From an uncultured Candidatus Rokubacteria bacterium (GTDB lineage Bacteria > Methylomirabilota > Methylomirabilia > Rokubacteriales > CSP1-6), in NCBI GenBank assembly GCA_963754315.1, contig CAVWFS010000015.1, forward strand, positions 86,207 to 150,206: a stretch of 64,000 nt of DNA, given 5' to 3'. The translations under genes were made by a program, and so were the position numbers. The notes under the pieces were generated by a model. It saw nothing but the letters and a program-made list of their open reading frames with translations, had not been told where the DNA came from and searched no databases. The number at the start of each line of letters is the position of its first letter. The stretch's first letter is position 1. Below, piece after piece: positions 2,897 to 58,460 of the stretch.

Positions 2897-4258
2897 ATGA
2901 ACGAGCCGGGCGCGATCCTGCTCATCGCCTGTTATGAGCTGGGTCACCAGCCCCTTGCCGTCGCCTGGCCTGTCGCCTTCCTGGAACGTGCGGGGTATAC
3001 GCCGGACGTGCTGGACCTCTCGGTCGAGCCGTTTGATGCCGAGAAGGTGCGGCGTGCACGACTGATCGCCCTCTCCGTACCCATGCACACGGCGCTCCGG
3101 CTGGGGGTGCACGTCGCCGAGCGCATCCGCGCCCTCAATCCCGGGTGTCATCTGGCCTTCTATGGTCTCTACGCGACTCTCAACGCCGACTACTTGCGCG
3201 AGCACGGCGTCGACTCGGTACTCTCCGGTGAGGTCGAACAGGCGCTCGTCGAGCTCGCGAATGCGCTCGAGGGCAATCACCGTCCCCTGCACTCGCCCGC
3301 ACCACGGCTCGAGAAGCTCAGCTTCCCTCCCCCGAGCCGTCGTCTGCTTCCGGATCTGAAGAGATACGCCCGCCTCGAGCACGGCGGGCGTCAGGAGCTT
3401 GCCGGGCACGTGGAAGCCAGCCGCGGCTGTCGGCATCTGTGCGCGCACTGTCCGATCCCGCCGATCTACGGTGGGCGCTTCTTCGTGGTCCCGCGCGCGG
3501 TCGTGCTCGCCGACGTGAGACAGCTCGTTGAGGCCGGGGCCGCCCACATCACCTTCGGCGACCCGGACTTCCTGAACGGCCCCAAGCATGCCTTTGCCGT
3601 GGCGCAGGAACTCCACGCCGAGTTTCCTCACCTGACGTTCGACGTGACCGCCAAGATCGAGCACTTGCTCCGGCACCGGCACCGGCTGCCCGAGCTTGCC
3701 ACTGCCGGTTGCCTGTTCATCGTGTCTGCGGTGGAGTCGCTCAGCGATGTCGTGCTCGGTCACCTCGCCAAGGGCCATTCGCGCGCCGACGTCCTCGAGG
3801 CCCTGCACGCGGTGCGCGGGTCCGGCATGACCTTGCGCCCGACCTGGGTCCCGTTCACACCGTGGACCACCCTCGACGACTACCGCGAGATGCTGGACTT
3901 CGTGGAGCGGGAGCATCTCATCGATGCCGTGGACCCGGTCCAGTACTCGATCCGGCTGCTGGTCCCTCCGGGCTCCCTGCTTGCGACCAGCCAGGCCATG
4001 CGCCCACACCTCGGGCAGCTCGTGGCCAAAGACTTCTACTACGAGTGGACGCATCCCGACCCGTCGATGGACACGCTCCAGCGGGCGGTCGCCTCCCTGG
4101 TAGAGGACGCCGCCGCGCGCGCAGAGGACCCGGCGGTCACGTTCGGGAGGATCCGCGACACGGCTGAGGCGGCCGCCGGATGCCCTCCGCGATCGGCCCC
4201 GATTCTGCCCGCCGGACGGCCACGCGCGCCCCGACTCAGCGAGCCCTGGTTCTGCTGA
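2897..4258 (+). CDS. class B radical SAM enzyme with N-terminal cobalamin (B12)-binding-like domain
   Basis: N-terminal Rossmann-like segment ILLIACYELGHQPLAVAWPVAFLERAGY... The CxxxCxxC cluster CRHLCAHC sits in ...HVEASRGCRHLCAHCPIPPIYGG, followed by a TIM-barrel-like region. 453 aa. Confidence 0.85.
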   Translation: MNEPGAILLIACYELGHQPLAVAWPVAFLERAGYTPDVLDLSVEPFDAEKVRRARLIALSVPMHTALRLGVHVAERIRALNPGCHLAFYGLYATLNADYLREHGVDSVLSGEVEQALVELANALEGNHRPLHSPAPRLEKLSFPPPSRRLLPDLKRYARLEHGGRQELAGHVEASRGCRHLCAHCPIPPIYGGRFFVVPRAVVLADVRQLVEAGAAHITFGDPDFLNGPKHAFAVAQELHAEFPHLTFDVTAKIEHLLRHRHRLPELATAGCLFIVSAVESLSDVVLGHLAKGHSRADVLEALHAVRGSGMTLRPTWVPFTPWTTLDDYREMLDFVEREHLIDAVDPVQYSIRLLVPPGSLLATSQAMRPHLGQLVAKDFYYEWTHPDPSMDTLQRAVASLVEDAAARAEDPAVTFGRIRDTAEAAAGCPPRSAPILPAGRPRAPRLSEPWFC

Positions 4259-25891: not shown

Positions 25892-27363
25892 GAATCCGAG
25901 GGCCAGCGCTCGACGTCGGCTTCGGCCGCCGGCGGCTCGTAGTGGCGGAGCTGAAGATCCAGCACGTCCTCGCGCGCATCGGAGAGATCGCGCCCTGCCG
26001 CCTGGCGCTCACGTAAGCGCTCGCGCAGCACCGTCTCCGGCGCCTGGCACCACACGATTCGAAACGACGCAGCCCTGTCGCGCGCCAGCGCCCGGGCCGC
26101 CTCCCGCTCGGTCCGCCGGCCGAAGACCCCGTCGAGCACCACGCTCCAGCCCGCCTCCAGCAGCTCGGCTGCGATATGCAGACACGTGGCGTAGGTCCGC
26201 TCGGTCATGGCGGCCGTGTACAGGCCTTCACCGACTGCCCCTGTGTGGTGCTGATGCCACGGGACTCCCGCGAGCTGCTTGCGAACGGCGTCGGTTCGTA
26301 CCACGATGGCGGAGGCGCCGTGGGCGATGCTGCGCGCTGCCGTCGATTTGCCGCTGGCGCTGAGCCCCGTCATCACGGTGAGCGTGGGAGCCCGGCGCCG
26401 GTCGGCATAGGAAGCCGCGAGGTCGAAATAGCTCCGCGCCCGTGATACCAGCGCCGCATGGTCTGCCCGATCAGGATCGACCGCTTGCAGACCGTACACC
26501 TTGCCCCGGATCCACGCGCGATACGCGCGGTAGAAGCCGAGCAGTGGGACGGCGCCGAAATCCCCGCTCGAATCCAGGTACGCGTTGATGAAGTCGAGGG
26601 CCAGGTCCGGGCGCCCGCTGGCGTCGAGATCCATGGCCAGGAAGGCGATCTCACTCGCCGTGTCGCCGTAGCGAAACCGGTGATTGAACTCGATGCAGTC
26701 GAATACCTGAACGGGGTCCGTGCAGCACACGTGCTGTGCCTGGAGGTCGCCGTGGCAGTCGCGCACACGGTCAGCTCGCCGGCGCTCGGCGAACCGCCGG
26801 CGCTGATCGCGCAGGGTGTCCCGCAAGAAGGTCCCCACGGTCGTGCGCGTGGCCGGGGTCAGTACCTCCGGCGGAAAATGCCCGGTCTGGGTGAGGCTCT
26901 CCTCCATGTTCCGCCGGATCACCTCCGGCCGACCAAAGCGGGCGATGGTCGGCCCGGAGGCCGCTGTCGCATGAAAGTCAGCGATCGTCCGACCGATATC
27001 CTCCAGCAGACGATGATCGGCGCCGGCTGTCTTCACGAGCTGGTCGAGCATGCGATCCGCCGGCAGGCGTCGCATCCACACCGCGACCTCCAGTGTCCGA
27101 CCGGAGCCGCCCAGCCGATACGCCCCTCGTCCGCCGGTCACCGCGACGACGTCCAGATACGCCTTGGGCGCGAGCCGCTGGTTCAGGCGGACTTCCTCCC
27201 GACAAAAGTGTCGGCGCCGCGCCAGGGTCCGAAAATCGAGAAAGCCGAGGTTGACGGGCTTCTTGACCTTGTAGACATACTCACCAGCCAGGAAAACCCA
27301 TGAGATGTGGGTTTCGATCAACTCCACGGAGGAGGGCCGGTGGGGATAGAACGTCGGATCCAT
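25888..27363 (-). CDS. bifunctional phosphotransferase-family (APH-like) kinase / P-loop kinase (gluconate-kinase-like AAA) protein
   Basis: MDPTFYPHRPSSVELIETHISWVFLAGEYVYKVKKPV (APH-like N-domain) ... CHGDLQAQHVC (Brenner-type motif) ... C-terminal TVMTGLSASGKST Walker A. The track ORF start at 27501 is an extension. Confidence 0.7.
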   Translation of the reverse strand: MDPTFYPHRPSSVELIETHISWVFLAGEYVYKVKKPVNLGFLDFRTLARRRHFCREEVRLNQRLAPKAYLDVVAVTGGRGAYRLGGSGRTLEVAVWMRRLPADRMLDQLVKTAGADHRLLEDIGRTIADFHATAASGPTIARFGRPEVIRRNMEESLTQTGHFPPEVLTPATRTTVGTFLRDTLRDQRRRFAERRRADRVRDCHGDLQAQHVCCTDPVQVFDCIEFNHRFRYGDTASEIAFLAMDLDASGRPDLALDFINAYLDSSGDFGAVPLLGFYRAYRAWIRGKVYGLQAVDPDRADHAALVSRARSYFDLAASYADRRRAPTLTVMTGLSASGKSTAARSIAHGASAIVVRTDAVRKQLAGVPWHQHHTGAVGEGLYTAAMTERTYATCLHIAAELLEAGWSVVLDGVFGRRTEREAARALARDRAASFRIVWCQAPETVLRERLRERQAAGRDLSDAREDVLDLQLRHYEPPAAEADVERWPSDS

Positions 27364-27499
27364 GAAGGGGCGAACGCGGGCGGGCAGCGCGGGGTCCTTC
27401 CCCGGCGACCCCTGCCCCGCTGTCGCCCCGATCCCTGGTGTCACGCGTGGTATCGTAGCGCGGCGCGGCCGTTCGCAGCGCATCGCAAGGAGATCGAAC

Positions 27500-29044
27500 A
27501 TGATCGTACCGCTAACCCTCGTCGACTTCCTCGAGCGTGCTGAGCTGGCCTATGGAGATCGCGAGGCCATCGTGGACGAGCCGAATCCCCCCGGGGGAGG
27601 TTTAGGCAGGATCACATACGCCGACTTTGGCCGCATGGCCCGCAGCCTGGCCACCGCGCTCGACGATCTGCGGGTCGAGCCCGGCGCGCGCGTGGCCATC
27701 GTCTCGCCAAACGCAACCCGCTTCCTGGTGAGTCTCTTCGGCGTGAGCGGATATGGACGCATCCTCGTCCCCATCAACTATCGTCTGCGGACAGACGAGA
27801 TCGCCTACATCCTCGAGCACTCCAGGGCTTCGGTGTTGCTCGTCGACCACGAGCTGGAAGAGTCGCTCCGGCCACTGAAGGTGGAGCACCGCTTCCTGCT
27901 CGGCGCGGCCACGGACCCCATCCTGTTCGGCCGCCCGGACGCTCAGCCACGCCATTCGGTCACCGACGAGAACGCCACCCTCTCGATCAACTACACCTCG
28001 GGAACCACGGCGCGGCCCAAGGGGGTGCAGCTTACCCACCGTAGCTGCTGGCTCAACGCCGTGGTATTCGGTTGGCACGTGGGTGTCACCGACCGCGACG
28101 TCTACCTGCACACCTTGCCCACCTTCCACTGCAATGGCTGGGGCATGCCCTACGCGCTCACCGCCATGGGCGCTCGTCAGGTGATCATCCGAAAGATCGA
28201 CGGCGAGGAGATCCTGCGTCGGGTGGAGTCGGAGGGGGTGACGCTCTTCAATTGCGCGCCTGCCGTCATCGCCGCCGTCCTCGATGCTGCCGCCGCTCGG
28301 CGCCAGCAGGGGCAGGGCACACCAGGGCGGGGGCGGGTTCGCATCGTGGTGGCGGGCGCTCCTCCGCCCTCGAAGACCATCGAGCGGGTCGACACCGAGC
28401 TCGGCTGGGAGTTCATCCAGATCTACGGACTCACGGAAACGTCGCCGCTGCTCACCATCAACCGGGCACCACGGGAGTGGGACGGTCTACCCCCCGATGA
28501 GCGGGCGCGGCGCCTGGCCCGGGCCGGTGTGCCTGGTATCGGGGTCCGCATGACCGTGGATGGCGAGGGCGAAATCTTGGCTCGCTCCAATCATGTGTTC
28601 GAAGGTTACTGGGACCAGCCCGAGGAGACGGCCAAGGCTCTGGAGGGGGATTGGTTTCACACGGGCGATGGGGGTCAGCTCGAAGGCCCGTATATCGTGA
28701 TTTCCGATCGCAAGAAGGATGTGATCATCACGGGCGGAGAGAATGTTTCCTCGATCGAGGTCGAGGACTGCCTCTACCAGCATCCGGCGGTAGCGGAGGC
28801 GGCCGTCATTGGCGTTCCCGACGAAAAGTGGGGTGAGACCATCAAGGCCCTGGTGACGTTGCGCCCGGATGGGCGCGTCACTGCTGAGGAGCTCGTGGCC
28901 TTCTGCCGCTCTCGCCTCGCCCATTTCAAGTGCCCCACCTCGGTCGAGTTCCGCGACGGCTTGCCGCGGACGGCCACTGGTAAGCTCCAGAAGTTCAAGC
29001 TTCGCGAGCCCTTCTGGCAAGACCGGACGCGGCGGGTTAATTGA
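27500..29044 (+). CDS. acyl-CoA synthetase (AMP-forming; medium/long-chain FadD-like)
   Basis: aaggag RBS then ATG 27500. MIVPLTLVDFLERAELAYGDREAI..., INYTSGTTARPKGVQLTH, YGLTETSP, ITGGENVSSIEVE. Confidence 0.85.
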   Translation: MIVPLTLVDFLERAELAYGDREAIVDEPNPPGGGLGRITYADFGRMARSLATALDDLRVEPGARVAIVSPNATRFLVSLFGVSGYGRILVPINYRLRTDEIAYILEHSRASVLLVDHELEESLRPLKVEHRFLLGAATDPILFGRPDAQPRHSVTDENATLSINYTSGTTARPKGVQLTHRSCWLNAVVFGWHVGVTDRDVYLHTLPTFHCNGWGMPYALTAMGARQVIIRKIDGEEILRRVESEGVTLFNCAPAVIAAVLDAAAARRQQGQGTPGRGRVRIVVAGAPPPSKTIERVDTELGWEFIQIYGLTETSPLLTINRAPREWDGLPPDERARRLARAGVPGIGVRMTVDGEGEILARSNHVFEGYWDQPEETAKALEGDWFHTGDGGQLEGPYIVISDRKKDVIITGGENVSSIEVEDCLYQHPAVAEAAVIGVPDEKWGETIKALVTLRPDGRVTAEELVAFCRSRLAHFKCPTSVEFRDGLPRTATGKLQKFKLREPFWQDRTRRVN

Positions 29045-29054
29045 TTAAATTGAA

Positions 29055-29323
29055 GGGGGGCCTCGAAGGGCCCCCTGGCCCCCCGCGCTCGGGACGTCCC
29101 GGGGAACCCGTGACGCCCCTCGGGATTACGCGGCGATGCTGGGGCCTCGAAGGGCCCCCTGGCCCCCCAGCGCTCGGGGACGTCCCGGGGAACCCGTGAC
29201 GCCCCTCGGGATTACGCGGCGATGCTGGGGCCTCGAAGGGCCCCCTGGCCCCGCGCTCGGGACGTCCCGGGGAACCCGTGACGCCCCTCGGGATTACGTC
29301 GCGGTGTGGGGCCTCGAAGGGCC
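29055..29323. repeat. GC-rich tandem repeat, about 84-bp unit x about 3.3 copies, each unit containing short palindromes
   Basis: Units start at about 29057, 29141, 29227 and 29307 (the last is partial). The unit is GGGGCCTCGAAGGGCCCCCTGGCCCCCCGCGCTCGGGACGTCCCGGGGAACCCGTGACGCCCCTCGGGATTACGCGGCGATGCT. It contains the hairpin GGGGCC-TCGAA-GGGCCCC and the perfect palindrome GGGACGTCCC. It lies between convergent fadD-like and yfbR genes. Confidence 0.8.
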
Positions 29324-29334
29324 CAGTTCTACGA

Positions 29335-29913
29335 CTACTTGAGTTCGTCGAGGGTGAGGCGGAAGCTGGGCACGAAGGTGCGGAGGAAGTAGCGCACCTC
29401 GGGAAGGTCGATGCCTTCAACGCTTTCCCGAAGGACTTTCTCCGCCTCCACGAACTCCCGGTTTCCGGCGCTGGTCTCCTCCAGACACTTGATGTAGGCG
29501 CAGAGCTTGTCAGCGGCCTTGATAAGGTCCACGTAGGGGCCGTCAGCCGCGCCCGGCTCCAGGAGAGCCCGGTAGTCCGGCTGCAGGGCGGCTGGAAGCA
29601 TGCCGAGCAGCCTTTCCCGAGCCACCCGCTCGATGACGTGGTAGGCACGTTCGATCTCGGGGGTGAAGTACTTCACCGGACGTGGCAAATCTCCCGTGAG
29701 CACCTCGCTGGCATCGTGGTAGATCGCCGCCACTGCCGCTCGCTCCGGGCTGACATCGCCAGCGAACAGCCGGTTGCGGATGACGGCCAGGGCGTGCGTG
29801 ATCATCGCCACCCGCAAGCTGTGCTCCTGGATGTTCTCCGTCTGGGTGCTATGCATGAGTCCCCAGCGCTGGATGAACTTCATGCGGGCCATCCAGGCGA
29901 AGAAGTGGCTCAT
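29335..29913 (-). CDS. yfbR: HD-domain 5'-deoxynucleotidase YfbR-like
   Basis: ...MHSTQTENIQEHSLRVAMITHALAVI...IYHDASEVLTGDLP has the HD motif arrangement of YfbR. Confidence 0.8.
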   Translation of the reverse strand: MSHFFAWMARMKFIQRWGLMHSTQTENIQEHSLRVAMITHALAVIRNRLFAGDVSPERAAVAAIYHDASEVLTGDLPRPVKYFTPEIERAYHVIERVARERLLGMLPAALQPDYRALLEPGAADGPYVDLIKAADKLCAYIKCLEETSAGNREFVEAEKVLRESVEGIDLPEVRYFLRTFVPSFRLTLDELK

Positions 29914-30348: not shown

Positions 30349-31545
30349 TCACGCACGGCGCTGGCGATGGATGGCATTGCGGCCGAGCCAGAGGGCAGTG
30401 GCGGCCGCCGCCGACAGGGCAGCAAATACCCCCCAGGCCACGGCGTAGGAATCGGTTCCTTCAAGTATGAGTCCGAACAGCGGGGCACCGAGTGGAATCC
30501 CGGTGAAGATCACGCCCATCGCCACCCCCGTCAGGAGACCGGCCTGCTCGCGACCACCGAGCTCGGCGCTCACCACCAGGTAGAGACCCACCCAGCCGAG
30601 GGTCCCGACACCGGCCCAGAAGGTGACCAGAGCCGCCACCACCCACGATATGGCCGGGGGCCAGGCGAACAGCATCAGCGAGAGAGCACCGATCACACAC
30701 GTCAGCACGAGCCAGGGAACGCGCTGGCCACCGAGCCAGCGGTCGCTGGCCATGCCGAGGGCGAGGCGAGCCACCGTCCCTCCTCCCTGGGCGACGGCAA
30801 GGAGGATGCCCGCACTCACCGTGCTCAGCCCGAAACCCTGGGTGGCGAAGAGCGGCAAGTAGCCGAGCACTGCCGATTGCACCATGCCGAGCACGAGGCC
30901 CGTGGCGAAGAAGATCACGAGGGCCGGCCGCCCGAGCCACCACCAGATCGCCGTCTCTCTCGCTGAGCTCTCCTGACGCTCCGGGACGGTCAGGGCGGCA
31001 AGTGGGCGCCATGCGAGGATGACCGGGACGAACGCCACCACGGCGCCAAGCACGAGCGCGGCGCGCCACCCCCAGCGCACCGCGACCGCCGGCAGTACCA
31101 TCGCCGAGGCAATCCCGCCGATGGTCAGCCCCATTTGCTTGATGCCCATGGCGACCCCGCGCTCGCCCAGCGGAAACAGCTCGATGATGGCGCGGCCGAG
31201 GGCAGGATTCACGATGCTCCACCCCATCCCCACCAGCGCGAGGCAGCCGAGCAAGACCCCGAAGCTCGACGCGGTTGCGCCCGCCCCGAGGACGGCGCCA
31301 CAGAGGGCCAGGCCACCGATCAAGCAGATGCGGGCACCGAAGCGATCCGCGAAGCGCCCGGCCGGCAGCGAAACCAGGAACCCTCCAAGATAGACGGCGG
31401 GCAATAGCAGACCTACCTCGAAGCGTGTCAGCCCGAATGCAGTCAGGAGGATCGGGGAGAGCGGCGACACGCCGAGGACGCCGAAGGCACCGGCAGCGTA
31501 GGCGACAGTCAGGTAGGCGAGCAACCGCCAGCGACGTGGGCTCAC
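30349..31545 (-). CDS. MFS transporter
   Basis: 12-TM-like hydrophobic profile; ...LPAGRFADRFGAR... is the MFS signature loop. Start is uncertain (GTG 31545; the track ATG 31629 would overlap the upstream gene by 60 nt). Confidence 0.75.
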   Translation of the reverse strand: MSPRRWRLLAYLTVAYAAGAFGVLGVSPLSPILLTAFGLTRFEVGLLLPAVYLGGFLVSLPAGRFADRFGARICLIGGLALCGAVLGAGATASSFGVLLGCLALVGMGWSIVNPALGRAIIELFPLGERGVAMGIKQMGLTIGGIASAMVLPAVAVRWGWRAALVLGAVVAFVPVILAWRPLAALTVPERQESSARETAIWWWLGRPALVIFFATGLVLGMVQSAVLGYLPLFATQGFGLSTVSAGILLAVAQGGGTVARLALGMASDRWLGGQRVPWLVLTCVIGALSLMLFAWPPAISWVVAALVTFWAGVGTLGWVGLYLVVSAELGGREQAGLLTGVAMGVIFTGIPLGAPLFGLILEGTDSYAVAWGVFAALSAAAATALWLGRNAIHRQRRA

Positions 31546-31565
31546 GGGCAGGGCTTGGTGGCGCT

Positions 31566-32771
31566 CTACACGACCCCGCGGGCGCGGAGGCCGGCGAGGT
31601 CGTCGCTCGTCAGGCCAAGCCGCCCACAATAGATCTCCTCGTTATCGCCGCCCACGGCCACCGGACCCGGGTGGTCGATGGCCCCGGGGGTCAGGCTGAG
31701 CTTCGGCACGATCCCCGCCATGTGAAGGACACCGCCGAGCGGATTGGGCACCTCCACGATGTTCTCGCGGGCCGCCACCTGGGGGTCCGCGAAAAGGTCG
31801 GCCACGCTGTTCACGAGCGAGCACGGGACCTGAGCGGCATCGAGGCGAGCCAGTGCCTCGGAGGCGTCGAAGGCCCCTACCCACTCACCCACGATTCGAT
31901 CGAGCTCGTCTCGGCGCCGGATGCGCTCAGGCATGGACGCGAATTCTGCCAGCAGCTCGGGGCGCTCCATGGCGTGCGTCACGAGTCGTTCGAACATCCG
32001 GTCGTTCGTGCACGCGATCGCAATCCAGCTCCCGTCGCGAGCGCGGTAGTGATTGTGTGGAACGACGTATTCTGTTCCCGAACCGATGCGCTCTCGTTGG
32101 TGTCCCACCGCCCCGTAGACGGGGATCAGCTCATCGAGCATGCGCAGCATCGGCTCGTAGAGGGCCACGTCGACCACCTGCCCCTGCCCCGTACGCTGTC
32201 GGTGCTGGAGCGCAACGAGCGCTCCCAGCGCTCCCATCGTCCCGGCGAGGTAGTCGGGGATGGTAGGGGTCCCAGGGGTTACGGGCGGCCGATCAGGGTA
32301 CCCCGAGAGATAGCTCACTCCACTCACGGCGGCGGCGATACGGCCGAAGCCGGGACGCGCGCGGGCTGGCCCCGTCTGGCCAAAGGCAGAGATGCGCACC
32401 ATGACGAGCCCAGGGTTGACCGCGCACAGATCCTCCCAGCCAAGGCACCAACCCTCCATCGTGCCCGGGCGAAAGTTCTCGGCGAGAATGTCCGTCTGGG
32501 TGGCCAGGCGCTTCATGAGGGCCTGGCCTTCGGGCGCGCGGAGGTTACAGGTGATGGACTTCTTGTTGCGCGACTCGACCAACCACATGTAGGCGGGCCC
32601 CGGGCCGGCTCCGCGCCCGAGGCGCCGCAGGTCATCGCCGATGCCGGGCTGTTCGACCTTGATGACCTCAGCCCCGAATTCGCCAAGCAACGTACAGCAG
32701 AATGGCGCCGCGATGAACGTGGCCAGGTCGAGGACACGTACACCCGTCAGGGCACGCGCGTTGGCGCTCAT
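31566..32771 (-). CDS. CoA-transferase family III (CaiB/BaiF-like)
   Basis: MSANARALTGVRVLDLATFIAAPFCCTLLGEFGAEVIKVEQP...DILAENFRPGTME. Typical length, 401 aa. Confidence 0.85.
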   Translation of the reverse strand: MSANARALTGVRVLDLATFIAAPFCCTLLGEFGAEVIKVEQPGIGDDLRRLGRGAGPGPAYMWLVESRNKKSITCNLRAPEGQALMKRLATQTDILAENFRPGTMEGWCLGWEDLCAVNPGLVMVRISAFGQTGPARARPGFGRIAAAVSGVSYLSGYPDRPPVTPGTPTIPDYLAGTMGALGALVALQHRQRTGQGQVVDVALYEPMLRMLDELIPVYGAVGHQRERIGSGTEYVVPHNHYRARDGSWIAIACTNDRMFERLVTHAMERPELLAEFASMPERIRRRDELDRIVGEWVGAFDASEALARLDAAQVPCSLVNSVADLFADPQVAARENIVEVPNPLGGVLHMAGIVPKLSLTPGAIDHPGPVAVGGDNEEIYCGRLGLTSDDLAGLRARGVV

Positions 32772-32789
32772 AGCAGGCCGCGCCTGGCG

Positions 32790-35313
32790 CTACTCCTGCC
32801 TGAGCACGGGCAACGGCTTCTCGCCGAGCAGCCGGAAGGTCGCCAGGAATCCCACCAGGAGCGCAACGGCCGCAGTGAGGGTGACGCCGACGACAAGCGC
32901 CTCCGGCTCGAACGTCCACGGGACCTCGAGAAGGTAGCGCAAGACCACCCACGAGAGCGCCATGGCCAGGGCGCTTCCGCCCAGGCCCGCCGCCACCCCC
33001 ACACAGGCGTACTCGACCGCGAAGATGCGCGCCACCACGCCCCGGGTGGCCCCGAGCGTTCGCCAGATCACCGACTCGCGCAAGCGCGTGTAACGACTCG
33101 CCGTGAGGGCCGAAATCATGACCACCAGACCGGCGCCGATGCTGAAGAGCGCCATCATCCGAATGGCCACGGCCATCTGATCGAGCACGGTCGCCACTCG
33201 CTCGAGCACGTCGCGCACGGGTATGGCCGTCACGTTGGGAAACGCGGTCACGACGGCGCCCTGGACGCGAGTCTCGTTGGCCGCAGGGACTCGGCTCGTC
33301 GCGACGAACGTGCCCGGCGCACCATCGAGGGCGCCCGGCGAGAGAATCATGAAAAAGTTGGTGGACAGCGTCTGCCAGTCGACCTTCCGAGTGCTCGTCA
33401 CCTCCGCCTCGACCGGCACGCCTTGCACCTCGAAGGTGAGGCGGTCGCCCACACCGATTCCGAGCTGCCTGGCCACGGCCTCCTCGACCGAGACGAGGGG
33501 CCGCGTCCAGTCGGTCGGGGCGCCACCAGTGCCCGCGGACGAGCACGTTGGCAGGAGGAAGATCGGCGGCGTAGGTCAGGACATACTCGCGGCGGAGATA
33601 CCAGGAGCCCTCGCTGTTCGGGCCGCCGCGCCGAGCATCGATCATGGCGCGGGTTACGGGCTGACCGTTGATGGCCGCCAGGCGCGAGCGCACCACGGGC
33701 GTGAGCACGGGGAGGGCGCCTCCTGCGGCCTCGGCTGCCACCCGCACGAACTCCTCGCGTTGATCGGGCTGTATATCGATGAAGAAGAACGACGGAGCCT
33801 CCCGCCGCTGCTCGTGATCGATCTGGCGGCCAAGGCTTGCCTCGAGCAACGCTACCGACACCAGCAGCATCACTCCGACTCCGAGCGCGATGACGATGCC
33901 CTCCGTCTGTGACCCGGGACGCGCGAGGTTGGCCACACCCTGCCGCCAGGCCAGCCCGCTCAAGCGCGGCCGCTGGCGCGCCGCCAGCGCCACCAAACGG
34001 GCCAGGCTCACCAGGAGCAGGAGTGCCGCTACCGAAGCGCCCACGAAGATCCCACCGAGCTTCCATGATCCGGCCTGCCAGAAGGCCAGCGCGACCAGGC
34101 CAAGCGCGATGGGCACGGCCGCGGCCGATGGTCTCCGCTTGGAGGCAGGATCGACCTCGTGACGCAGGAGAAGGGAGGGTCGTACCGTCCGGATGGCGAG
34201 CAAGGGCCAGAGGGCGCAAAGAAGTGCTGTCAAGACTCCCATCGCGAACGCTCGCCCGATGGTCAGCAGGTCCGGCCGCGACGATACCTCGATGGGCAGG
34301 ATGCCGGTCAGGACACCCACGACGATCGATTGCAAGGCCACGCCGAGAACGACTCCCGCCACGCTGGCGGCGACCGCCACGATCTGAGTCTGCAGGAGGT
34401 AGCCCGTCAGGAGCACTCGCGAGCTGGCCCCGAGAACTTTCAATATGGCGATCGTCGGACGCTGACGCCTCATGAACGTTGCCACGGCCGAGGCCACGCC
34501 GATGCCGCCGACCAGGAGGCTGACGAGCCCGATCAGACCAAGGTACGTCGCCATCTGGGAGAAGAAACGCCGCAGCCCAGGCTGCGCCTCGTTGAAGGAC
34601 GTCACCCTGATGGTCGGGTCCGAGATTTCGCGCGCGATGGCCTCCCGGCTCTCGCGCGCCGCCATTCTATCGGGCAAGCGAAGCAGGGTTCGGTAGCGTA
34701 CACGGCTCCCGAACTGGAGGAGCCCTGTGCCTTCGAGTGTCTGGCCGCTGATCAGCACGCGCGGTCCCAGCCCGAAGCCCACCGGGCTGTCCGGCTCCTT
34801 ACGCACAACGCCTCGGATGGTCACCGTCCCGTTGCCGACCAGGATACGGTCACCGACTCTCATGTCGAGCCGCGCCAGCAACGTCTCGTGCACGAGAGCA
34901 CCACCGTCGGCGAGCAGCTCTGCCAGTGGACGTTCGGGCTCGGTCTGCATGCGGCCGTACAGGGGATAGTCTGGCTCCACCGCTTTCAGCTCGACCAGCA
35001 GGGAACCCCCAGCACGAGGATCGCGGACCATCCCGACGAGCTCCCGCACACGGGTCACGGCAGCTCCGGCCGAGGCAACCCGCTCCACGGCCTGTGTTGC
35101 CTCGTCCCCAAGGGGACGCATGGCCCGAAGCTCGAGGTCCCCACCCATGAGCGTCCTGGCCTCACGGGTCAGAGCGCGGTCAACGTTGGCGGCAAGCGTG
35201 CCGACCGAGGCCAGCGCCGCCACCCCGACGGCGACGCAGGCGAAAAAGCCAACGAAGTGGCGCCACCCGCCCCGCATCTCGCGCAGGGCTATTAAGATGG
35301 GGGGCCCCGACAT
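32790..35313 (-). CDS. ABC transporter permease with two FtsX domains (YbbP-like), split by a frameshift near 33525
   Basis: The N-terminal part is in ORF 32668..35448 up to ...VLVRGHWWRP. The C-terminal part is in 32790..33476 (...QLGIGVGDRLTFEVQGVPVEAEV... second FtsX domain). The junction lies in gcgccccgacc. Removing one C gives the continuous HWWRPTDWTRPLVSVEEAVARQLGIG. The N-terminus is tentatively MSGPPILIALREMRGG at 35313, inside the repeat. Confidence 0.75.
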
Positions 35314-35478
35314 GGCCCCCCATACCCCCCAACGCTCGGGGCGCCCCGGGACACCCGGGTCACCCCTCGACATGACGCCAGCTTCTGGGGCCCCGATATG
35401 GCCCCCATACCCCCCAGCGCTCGGGGCGCCCCGGGATACCCGGGTCACCCCTCGACATGACGCCAGCCTCTTAACGTG
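35297..35478. repeat. about 2 copies of the same GC-rich about 84-bp repeat family, between the ABC ATPase and its permease
   Basis: Unit is GGGGCCCCGACATGGCCCCCATACCCCCCAACGCTCGGGGCGCCCCGGGACACCCGGGTCACCCCTCGACATGACGCCAGC. It aligns block for block with the 29055 unit (...CGCTCGGG.CG.CCCGGG.A.CCCG.G.C.CCCCTCG...). The second copy starts at about 35388. Confidence 0.7.
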
Positions 35479-35490
35479 GGGGGCCCCATC

Positions 35491-36186
35491 TCAGAGCCCA
35501 GCCTGATCGGCGGGCGGATGGCCGTTGCCGTTGACGAGGCGACCGTCCAGGAGGCTCACGATCCGATCAGCGTGGGCGGCCAGAGCCGGATCATGGGTGA
35601 CGAGCAGGAGCGTGCTTCCCCGTTCCCGTCTGAGCCGCAGCATCAGATCGATGATGGCGGCCCCGGTGGCGGAATCGAGGTTTCCGGTGGGCTCGTCGGC
35701 GAGGAGCAACTTCGGTCGAAGCGCCACCGCGCGCGCGAGCGCCACGCGCTGTTGCTCTCCCCCGGAGAGCTGCGCCGGATAGTGATGGGCGCGCCGGGTC
35801 AGGCCGACCTCGCTCAGGAGCCCTGCCGCACGGGTCAGGGCGTCGGCGTGGCCGGCGAGCTCGAGCGGAACCGCCACGTTTTCGCGCGCGCTGAGGGTCG
35901 GTATCAAGTTGAACGACTGGAAAACGTAGCCGATTCGTTGGCACCGGAAGCCCGCGAGCATATTCTCCGAGAGTCCGGTGATCTCGATGCCATCGACCTC
36001 GATACTCCCCGTGGTCGGCTGATCCAGCCCCGCGATCAGTCCGAGCAAGGTCGACTTGCCACTCCCGGAGGGGCCGGTGATGGCCACGAACTCGCCGGCC
36101 GCCACCTCGAGGTGAATTGCGTCGAGGATCGGGACGGGACGACCACCGCTGGCGAGACGCATAGAAAGGTCCCGTACCCGGATCAT
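35491..36186 (-). CDS. ABC transporter ATP-binding protein (YbbA/LolD/MacB-type)
   Basis: MIRVRDLSMRLASGGRPVPILDAIHLEVAAGEFVAITGPSGSGKSTLL (Walker A), [27 protein letters not shown]. Confidence 0.85.
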   Translation of the reverse strand: MIRVRDLSMRLASGGRPVPILDAIHLEVAAGEFVAITGPSGSGKSTLLGLIAGLDQPTTGSIEVDGIEITGLSENMLAGFRCQRIGYVFQSFNLIPTLSARENVAVPLELAGHADALTRAAGLLSEVGLTRRAHHYPAQLSGGEQQRVALARAVALRPKLLLADEPTGNLDSATGAAIIDLMLRLRRERGSTLLLVTHDPALAAHADRIVSLLDGRLVNGNGHPPADQAGL

Positions 36187-36212
36187 CTTGAATCCCATAC
36201 TACACTCGGGTC

Positions 36213-37600: not shown

Positions 37601-40225
37601 TCAGCGAGAACTATAGATCCGACGATACTCGTCCCAGGATAGCATGACACGCTTGACATAGTGGCGCGTCTCGTCGAACGGGATCTCCTCGACCCAGACT
37701 TCGATGTCGTCGTTGCGGCGCGCTTGCCACCACTGGCGTGCCCGCCGGGGACCGGCATTGTACGCGGCCAGTGCGAGCCGGGGATCGGTGAATTCCCGCA
37801 GGAGCTGCCCGAGGAAGCTCGTCCCGAGCTCGATGTTGGCCGCCGGCTCGTCGAGCAGGTCGCCCCCTCGGAAAGACCAGCCTCGCCCCGCCACCATGGG
37901 CTGGGCGGTGCTCGGCATGAGCTGCATGAGCCCGCGTGCCCCCGCTCGCGATACCGCGGCCGGATGGTAGCTCGACTCCTCACGAACCACCGCGGCCACG
38001 AGGCACGGATCGAGTCCCACGCGCTCGGCGGACTCTGTCACCTCCACACGCCAAGGCCACGGATAGAGGAGCTCCCAGAACGCGCGTGGAATTGCCGGGT
38101 GCCCGCTCGTGGCGAGCCCGGCGAAGTTTCTCCGCATGACTCGCAGTGCCAGGTGATGGCGCTCACCATCGACGTAGGCTCGGCTGAGCCCGTAGAGTCG
38201 AACGGTGTCGCCCGCCGAGCGCTGTACGACATCCGCGAGCTCGACGAGAGCCAGCTCGCCAAGGCCGACCCGGCGGAGCAGCTCGACGCGCTCGAAGCCC
38301 GGGTCGCCGGCGACGGCGTCTCGCGGGTTGGCAGGCAGACGCAAAGACGGTTCAGGGGGATCGTGAACGGCCGCTCGTGAGCCTGCCAGGCGGCGCTCGG
38401 CCAAGAGCCCGTAATAGCTGCGGGGCGCCTCGCTGATGACGCGCTGATACGCTCGCTGGGCCGGCTCGCGCGCGCCCAGCTGGTCCTTGGCACGTCCAGT
38501 CCAGTACAGCGCGGCTAACCGGTGAGCACGACTACCCGGCATCTCGGTGAGATGCGTCCAGCTCAGCGCCGCCGCACTCACGTCGCCACGGACGTAGGAC
38601 AGCCAGCCCAGGCGCCAGAGAGCATTCGCGCTCGCCTCGCGGGCAGGAAAGCGCCGGACCAACGCGCGATAGGAGTCCTCGGCGAGCGACTCGCGGCGCC
38701 GATCCTCGAAGAGGCGCGCTTGCAGATACATGGCCTCCGCCGCCTCGGCGTCTGGCCCCGTCCCGATCACCACGGTCAGGACCTTGTGCGCGCCATCCTT
38801 GTTACCGCTCCGGCTGAGAAGCCGGGCCTGTTCGAGCTGGAGTGCACTTTTCTGTTCGACGGGAGCCCGCGCCACGGCCGACTCGATGGCACGCACAGCC
38901 GCATCGTAACGACCGAGCCGCTGCGAAGCGTCCGCGGCGAGCTTGAGCGCGCGCACGACGATGCTGACATCCTGAGCATCGGCGGCGAGGCGGTCAGCCT
39001 CGTCTGCCGCGGCCTGGGGCACACCTCCGCGAAGCAGACGGTCCGCGCGATCAAGGCGTTGCTGGGGCGACAGCGGCGCGATGCGGACACCCCCGCGGGC
39101 GAGCGCGGACAGACGGTCTCCGGCGGCCGAGGCGTACGCCCCGGCCGGGGCGATCAGAGTAAGCTCGCGATAGGCCGCCGCCGCTGACTCGAGCTGCCCT
39201 CGTCCTTCGGCCGTCATGCCCAGCAGGTACAAGGCCTCCGGCACCTCCTCGGCATCGGGATAGTCGGCGATCAGCTTCACGATCGCCTCCTGGGCTCCCG
39301 CCTCGTCGCCGGCGCGCGAGCTTGCCCATGCCGCCACCAGCAGTGCGCGGGGTGCCAGCCGGCTATCGCGATGGTGCGTCGCCACGCTCAGCGCCAATTC
39401 ACGTGACGCGGTCCAGTTCTCGCGTCGTGCGAAGGCATCGGCGAGCAGCCACCGCACGTAGTCTGCGATGGGGCTGGCCAGCGCAGCTGGCGCATTGACT
39501 TGGTCGAGAAGCGGGCTCATATCACCCGCCTGGTAGGCGGCGATCGCCTGGGCCCACGTCCGTTCCTGCGCCGCCATCACCGGCGGGTCGGCCGCGCTCG
39601 CGGTCGGGCTGAGGAGGACCGTCGCGATCAGCACGCAGCGGGGGATGGCCGCCGGGCGGGTCGCGCGCCAGGTGAAGGCGATGCGCTGAAGCGCGGTGAG
39701 ATTGGCGAGGACAGCCAGAACCCACAGGGCCGGTTCCAGCACGTCCAGCAGGGCACCCAGGATCAGGCAGATCATCCGCTCGGGGCGCTCCATGAATCCG
39801 ATCGTACACTCGACCCCAATCGACGATGCCCGGGCCTTCGTGTAGCTGACCATCACCGATCCCACCAGACCGGCCATGGCCACCAGGGCCCCGCGCGTGT
39901 GTGGTGTGCGGGCGAACAGGACGACGATGGCGAGAAGCACCACGATGTCCGAGTAGCGATCGATCACCGAGTCCAAAAAGGCCCCGAATGGCGTCACCAT
40001 CCCGGAGGCACGGGCCAGGGAGCCGTCGAAGAAGTCGCAGAGACCCGCGATCACGAGGAGTACTCCCCCCGTCCGGATGTGGCCGGTCACGATGGCGGCA
40101 GCCGCCACCAAGCTGACGCCAAGCCCGATGAGCGTGAGGTGATTCGGTCGGAGGTGCAGGCGGACGAGGCTCCGCCCGACAGGGTCCGACCAGACGCGAG
40201 CCGTCTCGCGGTAACGACTGATCAT
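37601..40225 (-). CDS. 874-aa ORF: N-terminal CDP-alcohol phosphatidyltransferase (PgsA-like) membrane domain fused in frame to TPR repeats and a C-terminal SLT lytic transglycosylase domain
   Basis: N-terminus MISRYRETARVW...DFFDGSLARASGMVTPFGAFLDSVIDRYSD (DG-x2-AR-x8-G-x3-D-x3-D). There is no in-frame stop before CVLIATVLLSPTASAADPP (signal-peptide-like) ... C-terminal ESSYHPAAVSRAGARGLMQLMPSTA...AYNAGP (SLT). The start is 4 nt after the glnD stop. Confidence 0.7.
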   Translation of the reverse strand: MISRYRETARVWSDPVGRSLVRLHLRPNHLTLIGLGVSLVAAAAIVTGHIRTGGVLLVIAGLCDFFDGSLARASGMVTPFGAFLDSVIDRYSDIVVLLAIVVLFARTPHTRGALVAMAGLVGSVMVSYTKARASSIGVECTIGFMERPERMICLILGALLDVLEPALWVLAVLANLTALQRIAFTWRATRPAAIPRCVLIATVLLSPTASAADPPVMAAQERTWAQAIAAYQAGDMSPLLDQVNAPAALASPIADYVRWLLADAFARRENWTASRELALSVATHHRDSRLAPRALLVAAWASSRAGDEAGAQEAIVKLIADYPDAEEVPEALYLLGMTAEGRGQLESAAAAYRELTLIAPAGAYASAAGDRLSALARGGVRIAPLSPQQRLDRADRLLRGGVPQAAADEADRLAADAQDVSIVVRALKLAADASQRLGRYDAAVRAIESAVARAPVEQKSALQLEQARLLSRSGNKDGAHKVLTVVIGTGPDAEAAEAMYLQARLFEDRRRESLAEDSYRALVRRFPAREASANALWRLGWLSYVRGDVSAAALSWTHLTEMPGSRAHRLAALYWTGRAKDQLGAREPAQRAYQRVISEAPRSYYGLLAERRLAGSRAAVHDPPEPSLRLPANPRDAVAGDPGFERVELLRRVGLGELALVELADVVQRSAGDTVRLYGLSRAYVDGERHHLALRVMRRNFAGLATSGHPAIPRAFWELLYPWPWRVEVTESAERVGLDPCLVAAVVREESSYHPAAVSRAGARGLMQLMPSTAQPMVAGRGWSFRGGDLLDEPAANIELGTSFLGQLLREFTDPRLALAAYNAGPRRARQWWQARRNDDIEVWVEEIPFDETRHYVKRVMLSWDEYRRIYSSR

Positions 40226-56293: not shown

Positions 56294-56917
56294 CTATAGG
56301 GCACGCAGATAGGCCTCCACCGTCCTCGCCACGTCTGCGGCAACCTGGTCCGGTGGCCGAACGGCGCGGATCAAGCGGACACGCTTGGGTTCCGCGCGCA
56401 GGATTTCAAGGTAGCCCCGACGCACGCGGCGGTGAAAGGCGACCGCCTGCCGCTCGAAGTGATCGAGTCGCCGTCCGCGGATACGCCGCAGTCCCTCGAG
56501 TGGGGGAAGGTCAAAGATCAAGGTCAGGTCTGGCAACATTCCGCCAGTGGCCCTCACGTTGAGGTCCCGGATCAGATCACGATCGATCCCGCGTCCATAG
56601 CCTTGATAGGCGACGGTGGCGTCGGTGTAACGGTCGCAGAGAACGATCCGCCCTCCCTGGATCCAGGGCCCGATTTTCTCGGCCACGTGCTGCCGCCGTG
56701 CCGCCATGAAAAGGAACACTTCGCTGAGCGGCTGCGGCCGGGTGGCGGCGCGCTCGAAAAGGTGCCGAATGGCCACACCCAAAGGGGTGCCATCCGGCTC
56801 GGCCGTCCGCTCCACCTGGTAACCCTGCTGCTTGAGCCGCCGGGCGAGACGGATCATTTGAGTCGTTTTCCCCGACCCCTCGACCCCCTCGAACGTGATG
56901 AGCGCTCCGCGCACCAC
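56294..56917 (-). CDS. tmk: thymidylate kinase
   Basis: MVRGALITFEGVEGSGKTTQ (P-loop), ...DRYTDATVAYQGYGRG..., 207 aa. Confidence 0.9.
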   Translation of the reverse strand: MVRGALITFEGVEGSGKTTQMIRLARRLKQQGYQVERTAEPDGTPLGVAIRHLFERAATRPQPLSEVFLFMAARRQHVAEKIGPWIQGGRIVLCDRYTDATVAYQGYGRGIDRDLIRDLNVRATGGMLPDLTLIFDLPPLEGLRRIRGRRLDHFERQAVAFHRRVRRGYLEILRAEPKRVRLIRAVRPPDQVAADVARTVEAYLRAL

Positions 56918-56957
56918 TCAACCTCCCAGCACCAGTAAGCCACTCTAGCACGCCCCC

Positions 56958-57330
56958 TACAAGGGGGCCCTTTCGGGCCCCGCCCTCACGCATTCCCGAG
57001 GCGCGCCACGCTCCCCCGGGGCGTGCCGAGCCGCCTTGGGGGGCCAGGGGCCCTTTCGAGGCCCCGCCCTCGCGCATTCCCGAGGCGCGCCACGGGTCCC
57101 CCGGGGCGTGCCGAGCCACCCTGGGGGGCCAGGGGGCCCTTTCGGGGCCCCGCCCTCGCGCATTCCCGAGGCGCGCCACGCGTCCCCCGGGGCGTGCCGA
57201 GCCGCCTGGGGGGCCAGGGGGGCCCTGTTCGGGGCCCCGCCCGCCGCGCATTCCCGAGGCGCGCCACGGGTCCCCCGGGGCGTGCCGAGCCGCCTTGGGG
57301 GGCCAGGGGGGCCCTTTCGAGGCCCCCCTC
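56958..57330. repeat. GC-rich tandem repeat, about 85-bp unit x about 4.5 copies, same family as 29055 and 35297 but in inverted orientation
   Basis: The unit GCGCATTCCCGAGGCGCGCCACGGGTCCCCCGGGGCGTGCCGAGCCGCCTTGGGGGGCCAGGGGGCCCTTTCGAGGCCCCGCCCTC is close to the reverse complement of the 29055 unit. Copies are nearly identical and directly abutting, with no spacers. It ends at the acuC-like stop and lies about 40 nt upstream of the tmk start. All track ORFs inside (56577..57566) are repeat artefacts. Confidence 0.8.
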
Positions 57331-58460
57331 TACAAACGAAAAACCGGGAAGATCAGGCGGCGGATTGCCTCGATCTGACGCTCGGCGTAGGTCCTGACGG
57401 GCTCGGCGAGGTGGCCTGGAATAGGATCGGCGGGGTCCCAGAGATCCCCGGAGGAGAAGTTGTAGCGCTTGAGATCAGGCTCGAAGGCAAGCGGCATCTG
57501 GGTCGGGAGGTTCATGTCATTCATGATGGCCCAGGCCACTGTCCAGGCCCGGGCCACGTTGCGTAGATCATAGCCTCCTCCCCCCAGCGCGACCACACGG
57601 GGGGACAACGCGACCACGCGCCTGACGGCAGCAGCGAAAGTCTGCACGTCAAGTGCGAGATGCGTGAGCGGGTCGGTCCGATGGGCATCGATACCGAGCT
57701 GCAGCACCACCACGTCGGGATTGAATGCCTCCAGCAGCGGAGGAACCACGGCATTGAAAGCCGGCAGGTAGGTGTCGGGATCCGTGAACGCCTCGAGGGG
57801 GAGGTTGACGGAGTAGCCTACGCCCTTTCCCTCGCCGCTCTCCTCGACAAAGCCGGTCCCCGGAAACAGGCGGTCGCCGCGCTCATGCGTCGAGATGGTA
57901 AGAACGGTCGGATCCGCGTAGAACGCGTGCTGTACACCGTCGCCATGGTGGGCGTCGATGTCCACATACGCGACCCGAAGACCCCGGGCCCGCAACCTCA
58001 GAATCGCCAGGACGGCGTCGTTCACATAGCAGAAGCCCGACGCACGAGCTGGCATCGCGTGATGCAGTCCGCCGGCGAAGTGAAACGCTCGATCTACCTC
58101 CCCGCGCGCCACAAGGTCGGCGGCATCCAGCGACCCGCCGGCGGCAAGCCGAGCCACCTGCCAGAGGCCGGCAAACACCGGATTGTCTCCCGGCCCCAGA
58201 CCAAACAGCGCGGCTCGAGGGGGCGGATGGCCGCTGTCGGAGGCCTTCAGCACCTCGAGATAGGCGCGGCTATGAAACTCGGCAATTCGCGCTTCGTCGG
58301 CAGGCTCCGGCTCTCGCACGAGCATCCCCGGTAACGTGGTGAGCCCGTAAGCCTCCATGAGCCTCCACGTGAGTCCGAGCCGCTCCATCCGCAGCGGGTG
58401 TTCGGGCCCATAGTCGAAGCGCGTATAGGCGTCGGAGTAGAGGAGAGCGGTCTTCGGCAT
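57330..58460 (-). CDS. histone-deacetylase-family protein (AcuC/acetoin-utilisation-type deacetylase)
   Basis: ...FHFAGGLHHAMPARASGFCYVNDAVLAI...VDIDAHHGDGVQ...GGGGY (class I/II HDAC zinc-site blocks). Confidence 0.8.
   Translation of the reverse strand: MPKTALLYSDAYTRFDYGPEHPLRMERLGLTWRLMEAYGLTTLPGMLVREPEPADEARIAEFHSRAYLEVLKASDSGHPPPRAALFGLGPGDNPVFAGLWQVARLAAGGSLDAADLVARGEVDRAFHFAGGLHHAMPARASGFCYVNDAVLAILRLRARGLRVAYVDIDAHHGDGVQHAFYADPTVLTISTHERGDRLFPGTGFVEESGEGKGVGYSVNLPLEAFTDPDTYLPAFNAVVPPLLEAFNPDVVVLQLGIDAHRTDPLTHLALDVQTFAAAVRRVVALSPRVVALGGGGYDLRNVARAWTVAWAIMNDMNLPTQMPLAFEPDLKRYNFSSGDLWDPADPIPGHLAEPVRTYAERQIEAIRRLIFPVFRL

Follow-up and report, generated by a model that had tools for sequence, protein, structure and literature searches.

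Head-to-tail arrays in a Candidatus Rokubacteria contig as likely local expansions of a short two-hairpin interspersed repeat

A 64-kb stretch of DNA from an uncultured Candidatus Rokubacteria bacterium (phylum Methylomirabilota), here called the window, contains GC-rich tandem repeats at three separate places, near 29, 35, and 57 kb. The locus at 29 kb raises the question of what kind of element builds such arrays and how they come to differ in length. Rokubacteria, known from soil and groundwater, have large genomes and are uncultured. We found, beyond what an initial annotation of the window had described, that the repeated unit belongs to a family present in many Rokubacteria genomes and that a single copy is its usual state. 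We therefore consider it likely that the arrays arose by local tandem expansion of a short noncoding element that is interspersed, in many copies per genome, in Candidatus Rokubacteria.

Tandem Repeats Finder (TRF) revealed exactly three related arrays in the window, designated A, B, and C. Their units contain two hairpins, designated H1 and H2. The arrays and an example of each hairpin are as follows.

29057-29324, plus strand: array A as called by TRF (period 86, 3.2 copies, 94% matches)
35301-35471, plus strand: array B as called by TRF (period 85, 2.0 copies, 94% matches)
56962-57326, unit on the minus strand: array C as called by TRF (period 86, 4.2 copies, 92% matches)
29055-29324, plus strand: extent of array A from TRF, sequence, profile, and alignment; units 29057-29140, 29141-29226, and 29227-29307, terminal partial H1 at 29308-29324
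35299-35489, plus strand: extent of array B from TRF, sequence, Pfam, and profile; units 35301-35386 and 35387-35471, terminal partial H1 arm at 35477-35489
56962-57328, minus strand: extent of array C from TRF, sequence, Pfam, and profile; units 57326-57239, 57238-57152, 57151-57066, and 57065-56982, terminal H1 at 56981-56963
29055-29075, plus strand: example of H1, GGGGGGCC-TCGAAG-GGCCCCC, in which TCGAAG is a minor loop variant
29087-29124, plus strand: example of H2, GCTCGGGACGTCCCGGG-GAA-CCCGTGACGCCCCTCGGG; the family stem has 13 bp with a conserved C·T mismatch

The initial annotation had recognized one GC-rich tandem repeat at these three loci, and indeed the TRF arrays formed one alignable family that stood out from shuffles. 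Its estimates of about 3.3, 2, and 4.5 copies agreed with TRF for the second array and were slightly off for the first and the third. As it had also proposed, the third locus is inverted: the nine units aligned as one family once array C was reverse-complemented (80% mean column identity), and the inverted relation of the 29-kb and 57-kb arrays was given independently by the inverted-repeat pairs of the repeat finder. Copies within a locus are nearly identical, with 92 to 100% identity inside arrays, compared with 68 to 78% between arrays, and every array both begins with H1 and closes with an additional partial H1. The H2 core pattern had nine matches in the window (at most 3 mismatches) versus 0.46 expected, a number reached by none of 100 shuffles; eight of them lie in the arrays, and the remaining one is a three-mismatch chance match at 15379. 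The H1 pattern had 12 matches in the window versus 1.84 expected, and no shuffle attained 12.

The regular period of 84 to 88 nt bears a superficial likeness to a CRISPR array, and an assembly duplication or a protein-coding repeat could also produce it, but we give these explanations almost no credence. A CRISPR array was ruled out, as in the initial annotation, since the units abut without spacers and period and unit length coincide; furthermore, a scan of viral contigs with the family pattern described below gave 0 matches. An assembly duplication was ruled out because the flanks differ (by Pfam, the genes flanking arrays A, B, and C are unrelated), because identity between arrays is only 68 to 78%, and because the family is found in more than 100 independent contigs. 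A protein-coding repeat was ruled out as well, since the Pfam domains of the flanking genes stop before the arrays.

The core element has ~77 nt and consists of H1 (9 to 10 bp), a C-rich linker, H2 (13 bp), and a short tail. Read 5' to 3', it comprises (N2-3)GGGGGCC-CCGAMAT-GGCCCCC(N'2-3), then A-CCCCCC-AACGCTC, then GGAGCGCC-C-CGGG-GAA-CCCG-T-GGCGCTCC, and finally TCGA-TCACGCG. The family consensus is (TG)GGGGGCCCCGAMATGGCCCCC(CA)-A-CCCCCC-AACGCTC-GGAGCGCCCCGGGGAACCCGTGGCGCTCC-TCGA-TCACGCG. The conserved region ends ~3 nt 5' of the G-run and ~7 nt 3' of CCTCGA. Among 145 distinct copies from many genomes, ~45 of the ~77 positions were at least 90% conserved, unpaired bases of the loops and the linker included.

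Both hairpins are maintained by compensatory changes. RNAalifold applied to a MAFFT alignment under-called H1, owing to gaps in the C-run; instead, H1 was counted from the loop outward in 148 distinct copies. Pairs 1 to 7 were nearly invariant G-C pairs, and variation set in further out: pair 8 was GC in 83, TA in 37, and CG in 3 copies, and pair 9 was TA in 81, CG in 14, GC in 13, and AT in 10 copies. Pairs 8, 9, and 10 were complementary in 86%, 82%, and 52% of the copies, compared with 50%, 53%, and 33% when the 3' arms were permuted, and none of 500 permutations attained the observed pairing of the outer pairs. The apex of H1 occurs as CCGAMAT, TCGAAG, GC-TCCGG-GCG, or A-CTATCGAA-G. For H2, a 13-bp stem with a GAA-type loop, the C·T mismatch was kept in 100 of the 145 copies and 90.4% of the cells were paired. 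Changes on both sides occurred in 9 of its 13 pairs (91 cells versus 16.4 in shuffles), and the covariation score was 0.158 versus 0.047, a value attained by none of 500 shuffles. When the partner was slid by 1 to 3 columns as a control, 36 to 62% of the cells were paired. The initial annotation had listed GGGACGTCCC and CCCCCGGGG as perfect palindromes forming separate blocks; both turned out to be parts of one long hairpin, H2.

Folding gave a divided outcome. The consensus folded exactly into H1 and H2 in either orientation (z = -3.7 for sense and -3.1 for antisense), but the units of arrays A and C in the window were no more stable than shuffles (z = -0.1 and +0.4), so that covariation, rather than folding energy, carries the case for structure. 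A third, outer helix around H2 (CGC...GCG), predicted by folding, was dropped because it showed no covariation and equaled shuffles. On the complementary strand, the linker of every unit reads GGGGGG-(3-5 nt)-GGGGG(G) beside more G-runs, for example, GGGGGG-CCA-GGGGG at 29068-29084 in minus reading. This G-rich strand (GGGGGG-TNT-GGGGGG near further G4 runs) might conceivably form G-quadruplexes that compete with H1, providing a structural switch.

To delimit the family, we took a 26-base degenerate pattern from the block with the strongest conservation and searched one genome per species with it; it matched at least 117 genome stretches. A profile (nhmmer) made from the window units was searched against 118 sequences, i.e., the 117 matched loci and the window. 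Among the matches listed, it gave 193 copies in the first pass and 207 after one iteration, at 149 sites, and 109 of the 118 sequences had profile-confirmed copies. The nine sequences without a profile match were non-Rokubacteria chance matches (Frankia, Myxococcus, Spirochaeta, Acidobacteriota, and others). The remaining loci came almost all from metagenome assemblies of Candidatus Rokubacteria, Rokuibacteriota, or Methylomirabilota, obtained from soils and groundwater at many sites. Canonical copies were also seen on two short contigs binned as Anaerolineaceae (L013) and Candidatus Acidoferrum (L095), which are probably misbinned. The window itself is syntenic with the Rokubacteria loci L040 (74 to 76% protein identity) and L076, and the best named homologues of its Tmk protein are from Candidatus Rokuibacteriota (87% identity). 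Copies per genome were not counted but estimated from the density in ~0.9 Mb of fetched loci, which was approximately one extra site per 22 kb; the window has 3 sites per 64 kb.

The element matched no catalogued family in Rfam or in the literature searched. Rfam returned 0 matches at the gathering threshold for the whole window, and in E-value mode array A gave only mir-1233 (E = 2.4); in the literature, no repeat family of Rokubacteria was found. Among the 149 sites, 109 (73%) had one copy, 28 had two, 8 had three, 2 had four, and 2 had five. None of the 40 multicopy sites had units on both strands, and thus arrays are always head-to-tail.

The element is gained or lost at short intergenic gaps, and its copy number shifts between relatives. 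At the site orthologous to array A, which has the same convergent gene pair (81 to 84% protein identity), L118 and L119 were empty, with 15 to 22 nt between the stop codons, and L120 had one degenerate copy in the same orientation, versus 3.2 copies in the window. Two other loci, L114 and L077 (~80% protein identity), were reciprocally filled and empty at two neighboring junctions; at the empty ones, the stop and start codons overlapped or abutted. Between flanks that were 98% identical, L030 had 3 and L032 had 4 copies. Array C lies at the junction of a histone-deacetylase-family (HDAC-like) gene and the thymidylate kinase gene tmk, and there the element was present, in the same orientation, in all four relatives compared (Tmk 85 to 90% identical), with 4.2 copies in the window and ~2.3, 1.2, 1.2 (degenerate), and 0.5 (remnant) copies in the relatives. 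The copy number thus behaves like that of a variable-number tandem repeat (VNTR). The initial annotation had suggested an expanding, structured repeat resembling repetitive extragenic palindromic (REP) sequences or mycobacterial interspersed repetitive units (MIRUs), or else a satellite, and this description is supported by the covariation in 145 to 148 copies, the copy-number variation, and the empty orthologous sites.

Array periods vary by locus from 46 to 104 nt and take in local flank; in L114, the repeated unit even includes the duplicated start-codon region of the downstream gene. This argues that arrays are local tandem duplications of a resident copy and not repeated insertions. Two tandem arrays consist of H2 only (L029:1843-2099, period ~46 nt, and L014:1040-1426, period 77 nt), and therefore the element is modular, as are the BOX elements discussed below. 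A resident unit together with a few flanking bases would be duplicated head-to-tail, yielding VNTR-like arrays such as A, B, and C, and the duplication could proceed by replication slippage or by unequal recombination between repeated H1 copies.

Six of the 149 sites, none of them in the window, are in frame inside long open reading frames (ORFs), between or within Pfam domains.

L033:2124-2193: linker between Pro_dh and Aldedh of a PutA-like protein
L006:941-1011: TPP_N/TPP_M domain junction of a TPP enzyme
L025:2479-2600: within hydantoinase A
L022:6695-6762: junction of the two radical-SAM halves of a CofG/CofH-like fusion
L113:3172-3347: between the NIR_SIR and rubredoxin domains of a sulfite-reductase/rubredoxin protein
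L097:4998-5068: C terminus of an MFS protein

The consensus, when read as sequence, is stop-free in all six frames, and in-frame copies encode peptides such as GGPDMAPHTPPRSERPGEPAALLD. These copies within genes support insertion as a real process.

Gene context was taken from our own codon-usage gene caller, which is crude: it missed the FtsX permease gene of the window, and therefore all context counts are approximate. By predicted genes, 104 of the 149 sites were clearly intergenic, with 33 co-directional sense, 40 co-directional antisense, 26 convergent, and 5 divergent; under a strict filter, the corresponding numbers were 21, 35, 14, and 1. The strict-filter excess of convergent over divergent sites was significant (p = 0.001; the background gene pairs were 73 convergent and 64 divergent). 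Elements are thus found mostly after gene ends and within operons and seldom in divergent, promoter-bearing gaps. Short gaps are nearly filled by them, with median distances to the neighboring gene of 10 nt (5' side) and ~20 nt (3' side), and stop or start codons lie 5 to 15 nt from elements.

This placement, with divergent regions avoided, bears on the main rival explanation, in which the element is not selfish but a structure selected by the host. H1, H2, and the loop/linker would then be a binding site or an RNA/DNA structure used between genes, for instance, a U-tract-independent bidirectional terminator or insulator, a stabilizer of mRNA 3' ends, or a site for a nucleoid/topology protein, as has been proposed for REP sequences and bacterial interspersed mosaic elements (BIMEs) of Escherichia coli; new copies would be kept since they are useful. 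The idea is compatible with local expansion of an interspersed repeat, and as the explanation of the family we hold it possible but doubtful. The conservation of unpaired bases described above and the stability of the hairpins in either orientation are in line with it, as is the retention of the element at the HDAC-tmk junction in the window and four relatives, directly upstream of a conserved promoter-like block. However, close relatives often lack the element at orthologous sites, where the genes then abut or overlap, so no single copy is required, and some copies have decayed to remnants (L133 and L132). In-frame insertions in enzymes are hard to view as selected terminators, and the origin of new copies is left unexplained by host selection. 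Neither hairpin is followed by an intrinsic-terminator U/T tract in the consensus, and a terminator scan gave 4 sites versus a chance expectation of 2.6, only one of them touching an array.

The two covarying hairpins with their conserved loops, together with an A/T-enriched patch directly upstream of H1, could also be read as a strand-specific structured RNA that recurs in the genome, whether as a small RNA gene or as a cis-regulatory motif. The orientation of elements relative to transcription shows no clear bias, however: the strict-filter difference between sense and antisense sites leaned toward antisense and was not significant (p = 0.08). Moreover, at the junction of the ABC transporter ATPase and permease genes, the element of L076 is opposite in orientation to array B of the window. 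Strand-specific RNA is therefore disfavored, and we judge it very improbable. The absence of an Rfam match, the lack of a promoter-like site at arrays A or B in the scanned region, the position of elements 5 to 15 nt from stop or start codons, and the copies within ORFs also argue against it.

Several observations weigh against the preferred reading, that of an interspersed repeat expanding locally. We found no mobilizing enzyme: a tblastn search with the RayT protein of E. coli as the query gave nothing at E < 0.5 over ~0.95 Mb around the elements. Recurrent neighbors were ordinary metabolic genes (ABC transporters, SDR, acyl-CoA dehydrogenases, and similar) and included no transposase, and the genes bracketed by inverted element pairs were likewise ordinary, encoding by Pfam a DinB-family protein and ATP synthase epsilon. 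The element has no terminal inverted repeats, as its ends, (TG)GGGGGCC... and ...CCTCGATCACGCG, are not complementary. No consistent target-site duplication was seen, since the longest words shared between the 5' and 3' flanks of 84 single copies were distributed like those of mismatched flank pairs; flank repeats of 9 to 13 nt occurred in only 3 to 4 of the 84 and at variable distance from the core. Nor do the flanks hold a conserved target motif; they show A/T enrichment only. Because terminal inverted repeats, target duplication, and a target motif are all lacking, we infer transposition solely from the presence/absence patterns. In addition, most copy numbers were taken from short-read metagenome assemblies, in which tandem repeats are liable to be collapsed or broken, genes in the related loci were called crudely, and the conservation of loop and linker across genomes whose proteins are 55 to 85% identical fits a host-selected function equally well. 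Within the preferred reading, a trans-acting enzyme or a protein of the host would recognize the hairpins, probably in single-stranded DNA, and copy or maintain the element. When transcribed in either direction, the very stable stems would act as a REP-like block to 3' exonucleases or as a transcription attenuator between genes.

A more specific version of such mobility is a strict REP/REPIN family mobilized by a REP-associated tyrosine transposase (RAYT), or a cargo-less derivative of an IS200/IS605-type insertion sequence (IS) with H1 and H2 as its ends. The element resembles these in its imperfect palindromes with a conserved mismatch, its high copy number, and its extragenic location, and the lack of target duplication is what HUH single-strand transposition predicts. 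Persistence across the whole lineage is also known from REPIN-RAYT systems (PMC3116915; bioRxiv 10.1101/2022.05.22.493013). Against it, inverted doublets were never seen in multicopy sites, the only close inverted pair being in L031, 175 nt apart; no RAYT-like ORF was found in the sampled loci or the window, no conserved tetranucleotide stands beside the hairpin foot, and no H1 and H2 separated by a gene were matched in the sample. Lagging-strand insertion should leave a strand bias, of which the lack of clear orientation bias relative to genes gives no hint. We consider this explanation rather unlikely.

Taken together, the element looks like an undescribed, lineage-specific family of the familiar REP/BIME-BOX-RIME-MIRU class and not like a new type of system. 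With REP/BIME and REPIN-RAYT of Enterobacteria and Pseudomonas (PMC3116915, PMC3337134) it shares imperfect palindromes that are short, GC-rich, and repeated many times in a genome (here by density estimate), an extragenic position mainly after gene ends and within operons, a compensated hairpin, and a lineage-specific, long-lived occurrence without target duplication. Unlike REP sequences (20 to 40 nt), it has ~77 nt with two dissimilar hairpins and a conserved C-rich linker, and unlike REPIN/BIME, which are defined by inverted doublets, it clusters strictly head-to-tail. Because inverted doublets are absent from the multicopy sites, it is not a REPIN-RAYT system as defined (PMC3116915, PMC3337134), and no RAYT was seen near any sampled copy; it may work like one all the same.

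The BOX elements of Streptococcus pneumoniae (boxA-boxB(n)-boxC; PMC3049150) are similar in being modular and intergenic, in having stem-loops and one module that can be amplified in tandem (as in the H2-only arrays), and in their capacity to alter or extend ORFs. Unlike BOX (PMC3049150) and miniature inverted-repeat transposable elements, our element lacks terminal inverted repeats, and unlike BOX it has no IS-like ends. It also differs from BOX in being GC-rich rather than AT-rich, in belonging to a different phylum, and in having no sequence relationship to it.

RIME of Rhizobium are mosaic elements that are likewise modular with stem-loops. MIRUs are oriented with the operon, contain small ORFs that overlap the neighboring stop and start codons, and vary in copy number among strains as VNTRs. 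They reportedly (Supply et al., 1997) form direct tandem repeats of 40 to 100 bp in intergenic regions of a high-GC genome, often in operons. The direct tandem arrays described here, with 2 to 5 units at 40 of 149 sites and varying copy number at orthologous sites, are similar; unlike MIRUs, the element has no clear orientation bias, 73% of its sites are single-copy, and its conserved feature is a hairpin pair. Rickettsia palindromic elements (RPE) are AT-rich, 100 to 150 bp long, and frequent in genes, where they are stop-free and can sit in frame. Our element shares with them stop-free palindromic copies in frame in genes (6 of 149 sites), and it differs in that such copies are exceptional. 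RPE are mentioned in a review (PMC10969869).

The unusual traits of the element, namely the conserved two-hairpin module, the strictly direct arrays, the in-frame insertions, and the lack of an identifiable mobilizing gene, leave a small chance of mechanistic novelty. It is improbable, although conceivable, that the element is the substrate of an undescribed DNA-copying route or the domesticated partner of a conserved Rokubacteria protein. In that case, a two-hairpin module would spread, and enter reading frames, with no need of terminal inverted repeats, target duplication, inverted doublets, or a RAYT close by, while its loops and linker stay nearly unchanged. The two strongly conserved hairpins, with no recognizable transposase nearby, provide a concrete lead to whichever protein may recognize them. 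No interspersed repeat family was found described for Rokubacteria, and the consensus and profile are useful for annotation, since gene callers run through the stop-free units, which inflate or fuse ORF calls. The repeats also explain contig breaks and misassemblies in metagenome-built genomes. Furthermore, the arrays are VNTR-type markers for strain tracking in metagenomes, and the element can serve as a taxonomic flag for Rokubacteria contigs.

In the window, the arrays are flanked by the following genes.

27362-29044, plus strand: AMP-binding (acyl-CoA synthetase-like) gene (Pfam), stop codon 12 nt 5' of array A
29335-29913, minus strand: YfbR-like HD-domain 5'-deoxynucleotidase gene (Pfam), stop codon 10 nt past array A
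35491-36198, minus strand: ABC transporter ATPase gene (Pfam), transcriptionally upstream of array B
32668-35277, minus strand: FtsX/MacB-type permease gene (Pfam), downstream of array B, start at 35277 from sequence reading
57330-58460, minus strand: HDAC-like gene (Pfam), upstream of array C
56294-56917, minus strand: tmk gene (Pfam and homologues), downstream of array C

As the initial annotation had stated for this locus, array A fills the gap between its convergent neighbors; only 12 nt and 10 nt are left on the two sides. Arrays B and C lie between co-directional minus-strand genes, the unit being antisense to both the ATPase and the permease genes at array B and sense to the HDAC-like and tmk genes at array C. 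An exact-protein look-up of the AMP-binding gene beside array A gave no record, and a tRNA/tmRNA search found none. Weak tandem-repeat calls beside arrays A and C (29349-29397 and 57375-57412; periods 24 and 21, scores 56 and 51) fall inside the YfbR-like and HDAC-like coding sequences and are probably due to chance or codon periodicity. The FtsX/MacB permease gene scored poorly in the codon-usage caller, which preferred spurious opposite-strand ORFs; this reflects either a codon usage unlike that of the neighborhood or a poor performance of the caller on membrane proteins.

Directly downstream of array C, before tmk begins, a block GGGGGCGTGCTAGAGTGGCTTACTGG...GGGAGGTT (56920-56959, minus strand) is kept in the syntenic loci L130 to L133 and, more weakly, in L134. 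It looks like a tmk promoter (-10-like TAGAGT) with a Shine-Dalgarno sequence. In L076, a single element (4062-4132) lies between the stop codon of the permease gene and a glyoxalase gene; at its place, the window has two extra genes, encoding a CoA-transferase III and an MFS transporter (30349-32771), and the element therefore marks a synteny breakpoint. An unrelated short tandem repeat (CTTTTGCAATAGCCGCC..., period ~47 nt) was seen in an intergenic gap of L072 (3875-3999), the counterpart of which in L033 has the two-hairpin element. Finally, an 874-amino-acid (aa) ORF at 37601-40225 on the minus strand of the window combines CDP-alcohol phosphatidyltransferase, TPR repeats, and SLT lytic transglycosylase in an unusual architecture, and its homologue in L040 is 56% identical over 617 aligned residues (~70% of the ORF).

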